Part shown: piece by piece, positions 56,482-62,842 of the stretch | Layout of the letters: each line of letters opens with the position of its first letter | How positions within the stretch are numbered: position 1 is the stretch's first letter | DNA from: an uncultured Porphyromonadaceae bacterium | Lineage (GTDB): Bacteria > Bacteroidota > Bacteroidia > Bacteroidales > UBA12481 | Assembly: GCA_964355105.1 (NCBI GenBank) | Contig: CAYHCO010000011.1 | Location: forward strand, 16,636 to 80,635 | Length of the DNA: 64,000 bases | Direction: 5' to 3' | Program-made: the position numbers and the translations under genes | The notes under the pieces: model-generated | Told to the model about the DNA's origin: nothing | Seen by the model: the letters and a program-made list of their open reading frames with translations, nothing else | Database searches by the model: none

Positions 56482-57924
56482 ATGGCAAGAAAGAAAAAGA
56501 ATAATTTGGAGGAACCGAAAATTTTTGCCGTTAAGAGGAGTGATGAGGGACTGGCATTCTCCCGTAAGGAGTTCCTGGGTGCTTTTGGCGCGATCGGCGC
56601 CGGATTGACGGTCGTTCCATCTGTTTTTTCCTCAGATGGAAAGGTTACCGGTCCAAATATGACAAGCGTTCTGACAGCACATGCCGAAGAGGTGAACGTT
56701 GTGGCATTCAGCCCTGATTCAAAGTTACTGGCGTCGGGAAGCAAGGATAAAACGGTAAAATTATGGTCGGTGCCCAACGGTAAAGTGATGTCACGTTTGA
56801 CCGGTCATAGTTCTTCTGTTCTCTCCCTATGTTTCCATCCGGATGGAAAAAGGCTGGCGTCAGCGGGCTTGGATAACACGATCCTGATCTGGTCGGTTTC
56901 AAAAACAAAAATATTATCCACGATTACAGGACATTTAGGATCGGTGAACGCGATTGCTTTCAGTCCTGATGGGAAGTTCCTGGCGTCCGGCAGTGCCGAC
57001 CATACTGTAAGGATCTGGTCCTTTCCGGAATTGATAGCGTTGGGTACATGGAAAGGCCACACGGATTCGATTAATGCTGTTGCTTTCAGTCCGGATGGAA
57101 AAGTTTTGGCTTCGGCTGGTGTTGATCGGACCATAAGCCTTTGGTCGGTTCCGGGGGGGGAGCTCCTGAAAACTTTACCCGGGCATGACCTTCCGATCAA
57201 TTCTGTTTGCTTCAGCCCTGACGGAAAAATGCTGGCCGCAGGAAGTTACCAGGATGTCATCAGCTTCTGGTCGCCATCGACTGGGAGCATGATTCAAACT
57301 TTTGATGGCGATACTTATGCCGGGTTAACCATTAGTTTCAGCCCTGATGGGAAAATGCTTGCCGCCGGTGGTGATATTGACAACATAAGGCTTTGGCCCA
57401 TGCAATATTGGGAAAAGAGTCTGGTGTTGCTTGGCCATTCCGGCTCTGTCAGCTCGGTATGTTATAGTCCTGACGGAAGTTTTTTGGCTTCTGGAAGTAT
57501 AGATAAGACCATCCGGCTATGGAATATGCCAGGTGGTGAAAAATTTGTGACCTTTTTCGACCCTTTAATTAATGAGGAAACAAATGCCAGGGAAGTAAAA
57601 GTGATGGGGAACTCAATAATTACAGTTCCCTGTGGTACACCACTTCCTTCAGGGGCAATTTGCATTTGCGACTGTGTTGCTGCTTCACAATCTTACCCTG
57701 GACCGACGATGGTTTGCACCTGCAATACTATCCTGGTGCCCTCAGGGACATATTTATCCGGTTCAATGACTTGCATCTGCGACACCGTTGCAGTGGGTAT
57801 TCCTAAGAAGGTGTGTTCTTGTAATTCGGTGGAAACATGCAGTTGCAACCAGGTGTGCACCTGTGATAAAGTGTGCAGCTGCAATAATAATGTAACCTAC
57901 CTTACCTACTGGTATCCAAATTAA
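56482..57924 (+). CDS. Tat-like-signal seven-bladed WD40 beta-propeller protein with a C-terminal Cys-rich C-x-C-(D/N) repeat tail
   Basis: 480 aa. N-terminus MARKKKNN...SRKEFLGAFGAIGAGLTVVPSVFSS. Seven WD40 units of the form GH..V.A(V/I)AFSPDGK.LAS(G/A)..D.T(I/V).(L/I)WS. Residues 384-480 contain 16 Cys in CICDCV, CTCNTI, CICDTV, CSCNSV, CSCNQV, CTCDKV, CSCNNNV, and end in YLTYWYPN. Confidence 0.85.
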   Translation: MARKKKNNLEEPKIFAVKRSDEGLAFSRKEFLGAFGAIGAGLTVVPSVFSSDGKVTGPNMTSVLTAHAEEVNVVAFSPDSKLLASGSKDKTVKLWSVPNGKVMSRLTGHSSSVLSLCFHPDGKRLASAGLDNTILIWSVSKTKILSTITGHLGSVNAIAFSPDGKFLASGSADHTVRIWSFPELIALGTWKGHTDSINAVAFSPDGKVLASAGVDRTISLWSVPGGELLKTLPGHDLPINSVCFSPDGKMLAAGSYQDVISFWSPSTGSMIQTFDGDTYAGLTISFSPDGKMLAAGGDIDNIRLWPMQYWEKSLVLLGHSGSVSSVCYSPDGSFLASGSIDKTIRLWNMPGGEKFVTFFDPLINEETNAREVKVMGNSIITVPCGTPLPSGAICICDCVAASQSYPGPTMVCTCNTILVPSGTYLSGSMTCICDTVAVGIPKKVCSCNSVETCSCNQVCTCDKVCSCNNNVTYLTYWYPN

Positions 57925-57927
57925 GGG

Positions 57928-58206
57928 ATGATGGCACTCAAAAACTCCATGCGCAAGTTCCTGATCAACCCGGAAATCCTTATCGCAACTGAAATGCGCG
58001 GCTTTAACATCGTAAACCCAATCGATGGAACAAGCATTTTTATGCATTATCCGGAAGCTGCAGTGTGGTCGATTCTGAGCAGGAACCTTGATAATGAAAA
58101 ATCATACCTGATGTTAATGGCGATAATGGATAAGTCAAAGGAAATGACTTTGGAATTCATTAGCACCTGTCTCAGGGAATGGGCTGTGCTTAAGCTTATT
58201 CGGTGA
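57928..58206 (+). CDS. PqqD-like peptide chaperone (RiPP recognition element protein)
   Basis: 92 aa. ...GFNIVNPIDGTSIFMHYPEAAVWSILSRNLDNEKSYLMLMAIMDKSKEMTLEFISTCLREWAVLKLI follows the PqqD pattern: beta strands, then LN-x-x-A-x-x-W-type helix, then a helical bundle ending in G/L-I. Starts 3 nt after the WD40 stop. Confidence 0.65.
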   Translation: MMALKNSMRKFLINPEILIATEMRGFNIVNPIDGTSIFMHYPEAAVWSILSRNLDNEKSYLMLMAIMDKSKEMTLEFISTCLREWAVLKLIR

Positions 58207-58207
58207 A

Positions 58208-59161
58208 ATGGCAAATCTTTCGATAACCAATGTTTGTAACAAAAGTTGCGCCTATTGTTTTGCGAATGATACGCGTAACGAATCCGGGCGTTCATTTATG
58301 AGCATCGAGTTGTATGAAAAGGCACTTGATTACCTGGTCAGATCGGGAATTCCCCAGGCAAGGCTGCTCGGAGGGGAACCAACCCTTCACCCGGATTTCA
58401 AACGTTTCGTATCGATGGCTTTGGATCAAGGATTAAATATCATGCTTTTTACCAATGGTCTGATGTCCCTTGAAAAGCTGAAATTCTTATCCACTCTCCC
58501 TGAAAGCAGGCTTGCCATTCTACTGAACACAATCCATCCTGCCGAATTGAATCCAAAAGGCTGTGCACAGCAAAAGGAAATGATGATCAAGCTCGGTAGC
58601 GTTACAATCCCGGGGGTTAATATTTACCATTCCGGACTGGGATTGGATTATCTGCTTGATTATATTGAAATTTACGGGTTGAGAAAGGAAGTCAGGCTCG
58701 GGATATCGCATGCCATGTTAAGTTCCAAAAATCAGTTCCTGCATCCCAAGGATTATCAGAAAGTTGGGCATAATATCGCCTTGTTTAAAATGAAGGCAAA
58801 AGAGAGGGGAATTTCTCTCCGTCTCGACTGTGGTTTTGTGCCCTGCATGTTTCCAGAGGAGTACCGGGATCAGCTATCGGAGGAGTTAAAAGTGGCAGGC
58901 ACCTGCTGCCACCCGATCATCGATTTGCTCACAAACGGCACCTTTATAGCCTGCTATCCATTGAATGATTTTCTTAAAATTGAGATCCACGAAGATTCAG
59001 TTGCGAGTGATGTGGTAAAGTCCTTTGATCAGGCCCTGTCTCCTTATGGCAACTTAGGCATTTTTTCGTATTGTACTGCTTGCTCTCTTTTTAAGGACAA
59101 ATGCAATGGTGGCTGCATCTCTTTCCGGATCCAACGCCTGCGCAGTGGTTGCAACAACTAA
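58208..59161 (+). CDS. Radical SAM enzyme with a SPASM/twitch-like C-terminal Cys cluster (rSAM-1)
   Basis: CNKSCAYC (CX3CX2C) at residues 10-17. GGEPTL. C-terminal CGFVPC, CCHP, and YCTACSLFKDKCNGGC (CX2CX6CX3C). Starts 1 nt after the PqqD-like stop. Confidence 0.85.
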   Translation: MANLSITNVCNKSCAYCFANDTRNESGRSFMSIELYEKALDYLVRSGIPQARLLGGEPTLHPDFKRFVSMALDQGLNIMLFTNGLMSLEKLKFLSTLPESRLAILLNTIHPAELNPKGCAQQKEMMIKLGSVTIPGVNIYHSGLGLDYLLDYIEIYGLRKEVRLGISHAMLSSKNQFLHPKDYQKVGHNIALFKMKAKERGISLRLDCGFVPCMFPEEYRDQLSEELKVAGTCCHPIIDLLTNGTFIACYPLNDFLKIEIHEDSVASDVVKSFDQALSPYGNLGIFSYCTACSLFKDKCNGGCISFRIQRLRSGCNN

Positions 59162-59172
59162 GGCGAAACACT

Positions 59173-60120
59173 TTGGAAATCAAGAAAAATAAAAAGATTG
59201 TAATTCCCTACATCGACCAGGAAATGAATTTCTGGAGAGGGATTTTTGATGAATATGGCTGCCATATCTCGGAAGTCTATTTCCCCATAACCGGTAACCT
59301 GGTCGGTACCGGAAGACCAACGCAGCCTCAAATCCATTTGAAGGAATTTCTGGAATCAAAAATTCTCCCGGTTTCAGTTCTTGTCAATCCGGTAATTTTG
59401 CCCCGACCGGTCGAGGAAATGGCAGACAGCATTTGTGAAATGATAAGTCTCTATATTGATCAGTACAACCTGGCTGGAGTAACACTTTCCAATCTGAGTC
59501 TGGCACAAGTTGTGAAATGCCGTTTTCCCACCCTGAAACTCACTGCATCGGTACTTATGGATATAAGCTCAGATCAGCAACTGATTATGTTGGGAGATGT
59601 TTTCGATACCCTTGTACCATCAAATCGTATTATCCGGGACATTACTGCCCTAAAAAAAATAAGAAACTCCTTCCGGGGACGTATTCGTTTGATTGTCAAT
59701 GAATCCTGTTTGTCTTCCTGCATATTCAGGACACAGCATTTCTTCGAAATGTCAAATCCCGAAATCGGGTACCCGCACTCCCTATGCAACACTTTACTCT
59801 TGGAAAAGCCATGGCTCAGACTTACCGGTGGTTGGATCCTGCCTCAGCACCTTGACATTTTTGATGGTCTTTACGATGAGATCAAGCTTGCGGGAAGAGT
59901 AACATTGCAAAATCGGTCGAAATATATGCATGTCCTTGACAGTTATTTCTACAGTAAGCAATTGAACAGTAATGAAATAGGCGGAGGACCCGCATCGGTT
60001 AATTGTCCTATGATTATTTCGGACGATTTTTACCGGCACACGCTTTCGTGTAGCAAGAATTGTCAGAGTTGCACCTATTGCAAGGATTATTGGGTAGAAA
60101 ACCAACCACAAAATGGATGA
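59173..60120 (+). CDS. Peptidase U32-family-like protein with C-terminal Cys cluster
   Basis: SEVYFP...GTGR, VSVLVNPVIL, GVTLSNLSLAQVV, LKLTASVLMDISS, IRLIVNESCLSSCIFRTQHF resemble the U32 TIM-barrel core. C-terminus CSKNCQSCTYC. The start is uncertain: the track ORF begins at ATG 59101 inside rSAM-1, and plausible starts are TTG 59173 or ATG 59224. Family call is from memory. Confidence 0.55.
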   Translation: MEIKKNKKIVIPYIDQEMNFWRGIFDEYGCHISEVYFPITGNLVGTGRPTQPQIHLKEFLESKILPVSVLVNPVILPRPVEEMADSICEMISLYIDQYNLAGVTLSNLSLAQVVKCRFPTLKLTASVLMDISSDQQLIMLGDVFDTLVPSNRIIRDITALKKIRNSFRGRIRLIVNESCLSSCIFRTQHFFEMSNPEIGYPHSLCNTLLLEKPWLRLTGGWILPQHLDIFDGLYDEIKLAGRVTLQNRSKYMHVLDSYFYSKQLNSNEIGGGPASVNCPMIISDDFYRHTLSCSKNCQSCTYCKDYWVENQPQNG

Positions 60121-61456
60121 CTTGTTTTTAAAGGTTCACGACCAACTCCCTGTTTTTAGTATCAATGCCGGCGGTTCTGCACTCATTTACGCACCTGGAT
60201 ACCTCTTTGTCGCCGGACAGATCACGGAAAGTGAAATCCGTAATTATTTGGCTAACCCGTCGGAAATTGCAAACAGACCGCTCCAGCATTGCTTTTCGGG
60301 AATACTCGAATATGCCCGGGCAGCTGTCAGCAGATGGGAGATGCAGGCCCGGCAGCCGTTCTTACCGGAGTGCCTGACGATCCATGCCGGGAGCGATTGC
60401 AATATGCACTGCACTTATTGTTACTCTAAGGTCGATTTAGCAGGCTATGCCAATCTCAGGGGGTTTCCTGATGCGGGTTCAATACGCCTTTTATTCGATC
60501 AGATCGTCCGGCAGGAAGGACGGAACCAGGTCCCGGTTACAATCGTTTATCATGGTTCTGGGGAACCGACTTACCACTGGAAGGATCTGGCCGAATCAGT
60601 TCGTGACATCAAAAGAGCAGCCGAACGGCTCAATCTGGATACTTTCTTTTATGTCGCAACTAACGGCGTTCTATCAGATTCCCGCATCGATTGGCTGGTT
60701 GCCAACTTTGATTTGATTGGGATCTCCTGCGATGGGCCTCCGGGCATTCAGGAGAAACAACGTATTCGCAAAAACCGGGTCCCCAATTCAATTGAAAGGG
60801 TTTGCCGGCGGATCGCCAGGCAGGGCGGTAGATTCGATGTTCGGGTAACAGTCACCCGGGAAACGTTATTGGTACTTCCGGAAATAGTGCATTATCTGGT
60901 CCATGATTGCTCCGCCTCAACCATTAGGCTGGAACCTGTCTATTTAAATGTTGATCATGGATTTGTTGAGTATGATGCAGACGATTTCTTTCTCCGTTAC
61001 TCACGGGTCCGTGATGCGGCCTCTGCTTTCGGTGCAAAGATTTTATATTCAGGGGTCCGGCTGAAAGAACTACACGGGCCCTTTTGTGATATTCTTCGAA
61101 ACAATTTACGACTGACTGCCGACAAAGTAACCCGCAACTGCTTTTGCTTTATGAATGGTAAACCCGGCTTTATCACTGGCCGGATCGAAGGGGAGCCATC
61201 GGCATTCCGATTTAATCCGGACCTGCCAGAACTTAAATATTTCGCCTCCGGGATACCAGCCTTCTGTTCAAGTTGCATTAACCAATATCATTGCTCGCGT
61301 GGTTGCCCCGATTTTTGTATTATGGGAGAGTCTTTTCCTGAATACTTACCACAGAGCCTTTTTCGGTGCCGGCTGCATCAACTTCTTTCAGTTGACCAGA
61401 TCCGACGGAGTGCACATGGCATTTCGAATTATAAATTAACGGAAATCAGGATTTGA
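60113..61456 (+). CDS. Radical SAM/SPASM enzyme with a ~95-aa N-terminal extension (rSAM-2)
   Basis: CNMHCTYC, HGSGEPT, ATNG...ISCDG, and the canonical SPASM motif CSSCINQYHCSRGC (CX2CX5CX3C). 8-nt ATGGATGA overlap with the U32-like gene. Confidence 0.85.
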   Translation: MDDLFLKVHDQLPVFSINAGGSALIYAPGYLFVAGQITESEIRNYLANPSEIANRPLQHCFSGILEYARAAVSRWEMQARQPFLPECLTIHAGSDCNMHCTYCYSKVDLAGYANLRGFPDAGSIRLLFDQIVRQEGRNQVPVTIVYHGSGEPTYHWKDLAESVRDIKRAAERLNLDTFFYVATNGVLSDSRIDWLVANFDLIGISCDGPPGIQEKQRIRKNRVPNSIERVCRRIARQGGRFDVRVTVTRETLLVLPEIVHYLVHDCSASTIRLEPVYLNVDHGFVEYDADDFFLRYSRVRDAASAFGAKILYSGVRLKELHGPFCDILRNNLRLTADKVTRNCFCFMNGKPGFITGRIEGEPSAFRFNPDLPELKYFASGIPAFCSSCINQYHCSRGCPDFCIMGESFPEYLPQSLFRCRLHQLLSVDQIRRSAHGISNYKLTEIRI

Positions 61457-62842
61457 ATGAGGTTGGGAGTATAGTATGTTATCCGAAGTTTGATCGGCCA
61501 GAAATTTCATTTGTTCGAGATCTCCAGTCAGTTCCGAAATTTTTTCAGGCAAGCCTAAATCCGCCAATAAGGTGAATGCAGATATGAGCCGTGTTTGCAC
61601 GCAAAAGTTGTTATATTCAGGATTGGCGCCGGGATAACTGATTCCAACATGGCAACTGCCAGCGCAAGACCAGCGGCAAAAGCATTTTTCGCATCGAGGT
61701 TTGTCCTCCACCATATTTCTGATGGCATTCACTTTATGAGTGTCGATCCGGATTTCGCAATGCTCGGATAGGCTGCCAAAGTCTAGTTCCAATCCTTTTT
61801 CCTTCCACCGCTCTGGCATCAAATAGCAATTGCTGATGCGACCATCTGGTGAAAAGATAGCGGTATCCTTTCCAACGGGGCAGGAACTAACGGTGGGATG
61901 GGGTGAAATGTCCGATGCATATATTACCTCGACCCCACAAGATCTGGCGATATTTCTTGAATTCTCGAAATTAATAGCAAATTCGAAGGGATCCGGAGGA
62001 TACAATCCAGCCTGGCATGTATATTCGGTGGTGGTTAGGATCTCAAAGTTTATGGCAGAAAGTCGAAATTCAGAACATGCCCACACAGTAAATTCTTCCA
62101 TACGGGAGAGGTTTGCCTTGCTAATGCAGCAGCGAATACAGAGCTCCGCACTTGAGTTGCTGATTATTTTTGCAGTCTGAACAGCATTTTCGAAACTGCT
62201 TCTCCCATCCTTCAATGGTCGGTGCTTGTACTGGATATCCCTCAACCCGTCAAGCGACAATACGACCTTATTAAAATAGTTGCCCAAATAGCGTGCGTGC
62301 TCAGAGCTGAACTGCCCGTTGGTGGAGATTTCAAAACAGGTGATCAGGTCGTTCTCAGCAGCGACCAGGCGTGCACGCTCTACAGCAACCTCAATGATGT
62401 CGGGCGCAACCATGGGTTCGCCTCCAAAAAAGTGAATTTCCATTACCCTCCTGTTCTGCGATTTCAGCAGAGCGGTATACCAGTCAATAGCCTTGGTGAC
62501 CATCGCATAGGGCATCCTCTGCAGAGTAGATTCTCCTGCACCGAAATCACAATAATTGCATGCTCCGTTACAGGACCGGGTGGGAATAATACCCAGAAAA
62601 TCCGGGTTTATCTCGCCTGATTTCCGATATACCTGGTGTGAGGCACCGAGGGAAATCGCCATGGCAAGATCATTAAGCTTCGATCCAGGATCGGCAGACC
62701 CCGAGTGCGCCAGCCTCAGCTGTTCCCGGAGTTCGATGACTCCCTGCCGGTTCATAAGGGCGGATATGCTGGTAAACGGTGCGTACACCAGGAAATCTTT
62801 CCCAACCGGAATGCTATAGATATTTTCAGGATGAAAATTCAA
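61436..62842 (-). CDS. Radical SAM/SPASM enzyme, paralog of rSAM-2 (rSAM-3)
   Basis: CNGACNYC, FFGGEPM, STNG...LSLDG. SPASM elements SCPVGKDTAIFSPDGRISNC (CX13GX4C) and CEKCFCRWSCAGSC (CX2CX5CX3C). Its N-terminal extension IYSIPVGKDFLVYAP parallels VFSINAGGSALIYAP of rSAM-2. Confidence 0.85.
   Translation of the reverse strand: MNFHPENIYSIPVGKDFLVYAPFTSISALMNRQGVIELREQLRLAHSGSADPGSKLNDLAMAISLGASHQVYRKSGEINPDFLGIIPTRSCNGACNYCDFGAGESTLQRMPYAMVTKAIDWYTALLKSQNRRVMEIHFFGGEPMVAPDIIEVAVERARLVAAENDLITCFEISTNGQFSSEHARYLGNYFNKVVLSLDGLRDIQYKHRPLKDGRSSFENAVQTAKIISNSSAELCIRCCISKANLSRMEEFTVWACSEFRLSAINFEILTTTEYTCQAGLYPPDPFEFAINFENSRNIARSCGVEVIYASDISPHPTVSSCPVGKDTAIFSPDGRISNCYLMPERWKEKGLELDFGSLSEHCEIRIDTHKVNAIRNMVEDKPRCEKCFCRWSCAGSCHVGISYPGANPEYNNFCVQTRLISAFTLLADLGLPEKISELTGDLEQMKFLADQTSDNILYSQPHSNPDFR

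Follow-up and report, generated by a model that had tools for sequence, protein, structure and literature searches.

To our knowledge, only three roles of U32 proteins are known: one in ubiquinone synthesis, one at a single rRNA base and one at a single tRNA base. The U32 members of known role are iron-sulfur (Fe-S) proteins required for O2-independent hydroxylations, prephenate having been shown to be the oxygen donor for ubiquinone synthesis and being genetically required for the RNA modifications (PMC6747719, PMC10990095, PMC11574389). Canonical U32 proteins carry four conserved cysteines with the spacing CX6CX15CX3/4C; UbiU and UbiV each bind one [4Fe-4S] cluster, through C169, C176, C193 and C232 in UbiU and C39, C180, C193 and C197 in UbiV (PMC6747719). 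For UbiU, the assignment of C193 as an Fe-S ligand goes back to a double mutant, C193A/C232A (PMC6747719). The two other proteins, TrhP (YegQ) and RlhA (YdcP), are needed for the prephenate-dependent ho5U34 (tRNA) and ho5C2501 (23S rRNA) modifications, respectively. U32 proteins draw interest as O2-independent hydroxylases apparently using prephenate as oxygen donor. Here we analyse a U32-like gene on a stretch of 64,000 nucleotides of contig CAYHCO010000011.1, from an uncultured Porphyromonadaceae bacterium (the window), where it lies between two genes of radical S-adenosylmethionine (SAM) enzymes, rSAM-1 and rSAM-2:

59173..60120, forward strand: U32-like gene, 315 aa from its most likely start TTG 59173, delimited by the lengths and N-termini of its homologues; AlphaFold2 (AF2) model; best fold match Mk0906.

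The maturation of quinohemoprotein amine dehydrogenase (Qhp) provides another point of comparison. There, a small Cys-rich polypeptide has its cysteines cross-linked by a radical SAM/SPASM enzyme, and additional enzymes carry out Trp hydroxylation or leader cleavage ahead of export; of these proteins, QhpG is a flavoprotein that depends on O2 and QhpE is a protease of the subtilisin-like kind. The pathway logic putatively assigned to the present gene is similar, but its product has no sequence or fold relationship to QhpG or QhpE and the gene is optional. Our literature searches retrieved no paper linking U32 to ribosomally synthesised and post-translationally modified peptides (RiPPs), to SPASM enzymes or to peptide modification or maturation, in agreement with the sequence-only reading of this DNA, which was aware of no U32 protein in a characterised RiPP pathway.

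What is new is a firm but remote placement of the protein in the U32 superfamily, a seven-cysteine signature, the start codon, a rule of fusion with rSAM-1 and the status of the gene as an optional module. The clade has a different and larger cysteine set than canonical U32 proteins, is missed by the Pfam cut-off and by NCBIfam, and is repeatedly fused to radical SAM maturases in widespread uncultured bacteria, mostly from anoxic habitats.

Placement in the U32 superfamily

Scanned as a single protein against Pfam and NCBIfam, the U32-like protein gave nothing significant: PF01136 was matched with 11.1 bits (E 0.23), below its gathering cut-off of 22.4, and no NCBIfam model matched. Among 44 family members, 39 matched PF01136 weakly (best E 7e-6). 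Three relatives (P0181, P0189 and P0193) exceeded the cut-off, with 48, 30 and 42 bits, respectively, and the distant relatives passing it are related to the query at E 1e-22 to 1e-16. The TrhP model of NCBIfam received weak partial matches from a few intermediate relatives.

The family was then compared, using hhalign, with an alignment of E. coli UbiU and UbiV and 25 canonical U32 proteins. The family alone gave a probability of 94% (E 1.5e-7), and the family extended with the intermediate relatives gave 98.5% (E 2e-15) over residues 18-262, corresponding to UbiU 7-299. The same family gave no signal when UbiU, UbiV or the U32 protein of this genome was used as a single sequence, so that a proper U32 alignment was needed; a hidden Markov model search of the PDB sequences with the family profile returned chance-level matches only. 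In both hhalign comparisons the barrel residues N72, S126, R155 and K238-x-x-G241-R242 were aligned with the canonical N, S, R and KIEGR, the latter reading KLAGR in our protein.

The AF2 model of the protein (pLDDT 90.4, pTM 0.90) shows a triosephosphate isomerase (TIM) barrel spanning residues ~8-260, followed by a small C-terminal Cys-rich module. Its top match with Foldseek was PDB 5D88, the structure of Mk0906 from Methanopyrus kandleri and the sole solved U32 structure that our searches turned up, with an E-value of 3.6e-9 against 6e-5 for the next. VIA-align also ranked 5D88 at the top, with a Z-score of 17.5 against 11.5 for the next TIM barrel and a root mean square deviation of 3.2 A over 220 residues. 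Identity to Mk0906 is 12%, and Mk0906 differs in having no C-terminal four-Cys module.

Judged from the profiles and the predicted fold, the protein is a very divergent member of the U32 superfamily and the remote homology is solid. Its earlier designation as U32-like is upheld at that level, by hhalign as well as by the structural matches to 5D88, but not at the Pfam cut-off: by the curated Pfam test it is not a U32 protein. The profile comparison that had been proposed beforehand as a check did yield a significant U32 relationship.

Conserved cysteines and barrel residues

The residues that best characterise the family, numbered from TTG 59173, are encoded as follows:

59683..59742, forward strand: most conserved block, residues 171-190 (IRLIVNESCLSSCIFRTQHF); N176, E177, C179, C183, R186, Q188 and H189 are kept in 156-159 of 159 relatives.
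59785..59787, forward strand: C205 codon; this cysteine, the last of the three internal invariant ones, is kept in 157 of 159 relatives.
60049..60081, forward strand: C-terminal CX3CX2CX2C (C293, C297, C300, C303), Cys in 156-157 of 157 relatives.

The family pattern is C179-x3-C183-x21-C205 followed by C293-x3-C297-x2-C300-x2-C303. All seven cysteines are kept in 156-159 of about 159 relatives, fused forms included, and the same pattern, with its C-terminal motif, recurs in most of the more distant relatives. The two motifs quoted in the sequence-only reading are both present in the translation, the block above at residues 171-190 and CSKNCQSCTYC at residues 293-303; the conservation check that it had called for shows the C-terminal four-Cys cluster to be invariant family-wide.

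The block 171-190 was aligned with the Fe-S-binding loop of canonical U32 proteins. In the family-only hhalign comparison, N176/E177-x-C179-x3-C183-x2-R186 falls on the canonical N-x-G-x-C-x3-C-R and C179 on the UbiU ligand C193. The C-terminal cluster lies outside the U32-aligned region, which stops at residue ~262. We read this layout as a retained cluster loop to which a cysteine module was added, and from the seven invariant cysteines we infer that the protein would bind Fe-S clusters of the [4Fe-4S] type. The barrel is also lined by invariant polar residues: Y13, D15, Q16, N72, S126, Q136, R155, N176, E177, R186, Q188, H189, E192, K238 and R242.

Compared with UbiU and UbiV, the protein shares the superfamily, the barrel and conserved cysteines in the same loop, and both work within a protein pair or complex. 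The differences are its cysteine spacing (CX3CX21C plus CX3CX2CX2C, against CX6CX16CX38C in UbiU and CXnCX12CX3C in UbiV), its score under the Pfam cut-off, and its context, which is radical SAM maturation of proteins or peptides rather than quinone synthesis, with no SCP2 partner such as UbiT. TrhP and RlhA belong to the same superfamily and are presumed to be Fe-S proteins acting without O2; in contrast to them, our protein has neither the canonical motif nor the C-terminal U32 extension and is associated with protein-tail maturases, and the genome carries a separate canonical U32 gene of the TrhP/RlhA type.

Gene model and start codon

Relatives of the U32-like protein numbered 465 at E<=1e-3 in a collection at 90% identity (best E 1e-136, 62-65% identity) and 466 among 50%-identity representatives, an abundance which argues that the open reading frame (ORF) is real and not due to chance. 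The ORF of 59101 to 60120 on the forward strand claimed in the sequence-only reading is present in the ORF list. Three start codons had been left open. Stand-alone relatives are about 315 aa long and their N-termini lie 6-10 residues ahead of a conserved I-P-Y-x-D-Q, which makes TTG 59173, located 12 nt past the rSAM-1 stop, the most likely start. ATG 59224 was rejected as it would remove the invariant P12, Y13, D15 and Q16, and ATG 59101 was rejected because its 24 added residues have no counterpart in the homologues; the corresponding extension is probably not translated within the U32-like protein. At the other end, the gene runs 8 nt into rSAM-2, from the ATG of the latter at 60113 to its own stop codon at 60118-60120, as had been stated.

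59101..59172, forward strand: in-frame extension from ATG 59101, overlapping the rSAM-1 end; its 24 residues are unmatched in the ~315-aa homologues.
60113..60120, forward strand: 8-nt overlap between the U32-like stop and the rSAM-2 start, ATGGATGA, from the sequence and the ORF list.
60113..61456, forward strand: rSAM-2, 447 aa, radical SAM peptide-maturase-like; in some lineages it is fused to the C-terminal end of a U32-like domain.

Fusion and synteny with rSAM-1

The gene preceding the U32-like gene is:

58208..59161, forward strand: rSAM-1, 317 aa, Pfam Radical_SAM 7e-17, short, with a C-terminal Cys-rich (SPASM/twitch-like) region.

We assembled 80 species-representative loci bearing a U32-like gene, all from metagenome-assembled genomes (MAGs) and distributed among Bacteroidales, Acidobacteriota, Chloroflexota, Planctomycetota, Verrucomicrobiota, Desulfobacterota, Coriobacteriia, KSB1, Calditrichota and others. 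An rSAM-1::U32 fusion was found in 33 of them, and another 36 have rSAM-1 as a separate gene at the locus; five very short contigs are among the 11 that are left. Within the 50%-identity representatives, most of the top matches measure 630-710 aa and carry the U32-like domain C-terminally, and the sole form of this length that was scanned (P0126) has an N-terminal radical SAM domain according to Pfam. Other architectures comprise U32::rSAM (792 aa), rSAM-1::U32::rSAM (~1090-1120 aa) and single polypeptides of 1563-1582 aa in which rSAM-1 and the U32-like domain are combined with two more radical SAM domains (L064:5934-10682; P0143, P0147). Distant members of the clade are also found within radical SAM clusters. 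The position between two SPASM enzymes noted in the sequence-only reading therefore holds in this window but not elsewhere, where the constant neighbour is rSAM-1, often in fused form.

In an AF2 model of a natural rSAM-1::U32 fusion both domains fold (mean pLDDT 82), with a pTM of 0.50 and a disordered linker of 40 residues, so that the model is uninformative on the docking of the two domains. A complex prediction for separate rSAM-1 and U32-like proteins, run without controls, scored 0.00 and gives no verdict either way.

Several side observations concern these loci. Many genes of the rSAM-2 type are ~900 aa long, and a scan of one of them (L029, 923 aa) revealed two stretches of the radical SAM type. 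Distant members with the same cysteine pattern occur in other radical SAM clusters (L195:6001-10198 and L194:1487-3953); one such cluster contains two U32 paralogues, B12-binding radical SAM enzymes and matches to the pyridoxal phosphate-dependent (PALP) and, weakly, the PEMT families, and another adjoins a ScmC (SynChlorMet cassette) protein. A Bacteroidales operon encodes a 560-aa YcaO-domain protein between rSAM-1 and the WD40 substrate (L003:2033-3715, on the same contig as L014); the window has no such gene.

Optional distribution

Operons were also collected independently of the U32-like gene, by searching contigs from metagenomes with a profile built on rSAM-3, which is the system's most conserved enzyme, and the loci with at least 3.6 kb of downstream flank (38 in number) were counted.

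61436..62842, reverse strand: rSAM-3, 468 aa, radical SAM/SPASM maturase-like, present in 67 of the 80 U32-bearing loci.

The U32-like gene is present in 17 of the 38 rSAM-3 loci and absent from 21. The latter keep the small protein, rSAM-1, enzymes of the rSAM-2 type and tail-bearing substrates. They include close relatives of the window operon (L096 and L099, rSAM-1 scoring 384-407 bits), and in L096 rSAM-3 abuts rSAM-2, leaving no space for an extra gene. After rSAM-1, the operons without the gene encode secreted proteins of ~600-790 aa, which look by eye to be of the repeat or propeller type, no family search having been made, and no obvious replacement enzyme was evident at that place. 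On the rSAM-3 tree the presence of the U32-like gene changes at least 10 times.

The gene is therefore an optional module, repeatedly gained or lost, and not a core component in charge of a step such as leader removal. The sequence-only reading had named absence from otherwise conserved copies of the operon as a result that would count against it, and such absence is what we observe, L096 and L099 being cases in point. At a wider scale, among 401 sampled genomes of the taxonomic order to which the window belongs, 2 have any match, as do 0 of 4 from the same genus, which indicates that the whole island is accessory.

Tails of the presumed substrates

The presumed substrate of the system is encoded as follows:

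56482..57924, forward strand: WD40 protein with a Tat-like SRKEFL N-terminus (Tat, twin-arginine translocation) and a C-x-C-(D/N) repeat tail ending in YWYPN, from the translation and Pfam WD40.

Equivalent tails are found on the substrates of most related loci, and the radical SAM enzymes most likely modify these Cys-rich tails of exported proteins. In the related loci (L010-L169), the tails end with (H/T/Y)-Y-(W/Y)-(Y/H/R)-P-(N/T/C), both with and without a U32-like gene in the operon. Trp occupies position -4 in 84 of the 87 tails from operons with the gene; Tyr at this position was confined to operons lacking the gene (10 tails from about five loci), although several operons of this kind have Trp tails. 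When relatedness was allowed for, 4 independent pairs were left and the association was not significant (sign test, p about 0.5). It is a lead, not evidence.

In one metagenomic operon (L004:9005-10035), the U32-like gene is directly adjoined by TatC and TatA genes. These neighbours fit the Tat-like signal of the substrates and the export of the modified proteins by the Tat pathway.

Possible role of the U32-like protein

We tentatively favour, with confidence a little short of even, an O2-independent Fe-S enzyme of the U32 type, a tailoring oxidase or hydroxylase, which would act on the substrate tail together with rSAM-1. Behind this reading are the conservation of barrel residues, the loop with its cysteines, the repeated covalent tethering to rSAM-1 and the optional distribution. 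The TIM-barrel protein would bind Fe-S clusters via the seven invariant cysteines, three of them in the loop that carries the UbiU-type [4Fe-4S] ligands and four in the added C-terminal CX3CX2CX2C module. Working physically beside rSAM-1, the protein would perform an optional tailoring step in a system of several radical SAM enzymes, the probable task of which is to mature Tat-exported proteins at their Cys-rich C-terminal tails, and the most likely chemistry of the protein, by analogy with UbiU/UbiV, RlhA and TrhP, would be the O2-independent oxidation or hydroxylation of a tail residue. The homology and fold, the cysteine conservation, the fusion and synteny with rSAM-1 and the optional distribution are directly supported; that the protein binds Fe-S clusters, acts on a protein and carries out chemistry of this type is what we infer.

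Several points weigh against this reading. The canonical CX6CX15CX3/4C motif is not found in the protein: at most its CX3C half aligns, in an ambiguous register, and the second hhalign comparison, which included the intermediate relatives, shifts the register of the internal cysteines within the same loop. A direct hydroxylase activity of UbiU/UbiV, RlhA and TrhP was not shown in vitro (PMC10990095). The distribution adds that the function of the gene is dispensable or supplied in trans.

In an improbable but more specific version, the enzyme would be the first hydroxylase or oxidase of the U32 type, independent of O2, to have a protein as its target in place of RNA or a quinone precursor. Tethered to a radical SAM enzyme, it would oxidise an aromatic residue of the conserved C-terminal motif (H/T)-Y-W-(Y/H/R)-P-(N/T/C), possibly as a step to a quinone-like protein-derived cofactor made without oxygen in anaerobes. 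The distribution of Trp and Tyr at position -4 hints at it, without significance once relatedness is considered. If the protein does modify the tail, U32 chemistry would be extended to proteins, and the mechanism could be studied on a compact, genetically defined pair of enzyme and substrate, given that substrates of ~150 aa and natural operons with and without the gene exist.

Possible too, although clearly doubtful, is that the protein is not a catalyst and serves rSAM-1 as an accessory, either relaying electrons through Fe-S clusters to or from the radical SAM and auxiliary clusters or acting as a scaffold for the tail. The commonest architecture, a direct fusion to rSAM-1 via a flexible linker of ~40 residues, is in favour of such a helper, and with seven cysteines two clusters could be accommodated, which would suit an electron relay. 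Roughly half of the operons do without the gene, as expected of a helper that general ferredoxins or flavodoxins can replace. However, the many invariant polar residues of the barrel exceed the needs of a simple cluster carrier, and several of them match residues conserved in canonical U32 enzymes. Even a mere electron relay would be a new type of accessory for radical SAM maturases.

We consider a peptidase unlikely. In the historical sense of the U32 "collagenase", it would trim the modified tail, for instance of a recognition sequence; the family name, the label "collagenase-like PrtC family protease" given by JGI to a few relatives and the frequency of dedicated peptidases in RiPP-type pathways speak for it. 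Yet the substrates are whole exported proteins modified at their C-terminus, with an N-terminal Tat-like signal left to the signal peptidase and no leader to cut, and the U32 members of known role act in hydroxylations. Seven invariant cysteines and a position inside polypeptides with several radical SAM domains would be unusual for a peptidase. An obligatory leader or follower peptidase of the RiPP kind is also at odds with the absence of the gene from 21 of the 38 operons and with an extreme C-terminal motif that is the same whether or not the gene is present. There is similarly little probability that the protein is itself a non-canonical SAM-radical or other Fe-S enzyme, which would use its C-terminal CX3CX2C(X2C) on a TIM barrel to perform its own cross-linking or radical step. 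The invariant C-terminal motif does include the CX3CX2C spacing typical of radical SAM enzymes, among which the protein is always found, and the two families share a TIM-barrel-type fold (PMC11574389). But the fourth cysteine could ligate the cluster fully, leaving no open iron for SAM, the motif is placed after the barrel and not after strand 1, and no radical SAM model of Pfam or NCBIfam matches the protein.

Neighbouring genes and genomic context

The order of genes in the window is WD40 substrate, 92-aa protein, rSAM-1, U32-like gene and rSAM-2, with rSAM-3 and a PMT_2 membrane protein converging from the other strand.

57928..58206, forward strand: 92-aa protein upstream of rSAM-1; homologous ORFs of 85-130 aa precede rSAM-1 in many loci.

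The 92-aa protein matched no family in the Pfam and NCBIfam scans; by its sequence it resembles recognition elements of the PqqD type. When complete, the PMT_2 gene, which the window end truncates, encodes 438 aa, and the cluster runs past the right end (L196:2788-8300, that is G000:C11:80787-86299, reverse strand). Beyond the window it encodes another radical SAM protein, the fourth (444 aa), together with a protein of 683 aa that gives a YfiO/TPR-like match and a further WD40 substrate of 463 aa, whose Cys-repeat tail likewise ends in TYWYPN.

The canonical U32 gene of the same genome (G000:C3:104658-105344; L006:1189-2478, reverse strand) encodes 429 aa with the standard cysteine motif and scores 219 bits against PF01136. 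It presumably performs housekeeping RNA hydroxylation, which would make the U32-like gene an extra, specialised paralogue. No RNA sequencing run was listed with the region 58208-61456. DNA nearly identical to this region was found in freshwater and lake-water metagenome runs from two studies, which points to a freshwater MAG lineage as the source organism.

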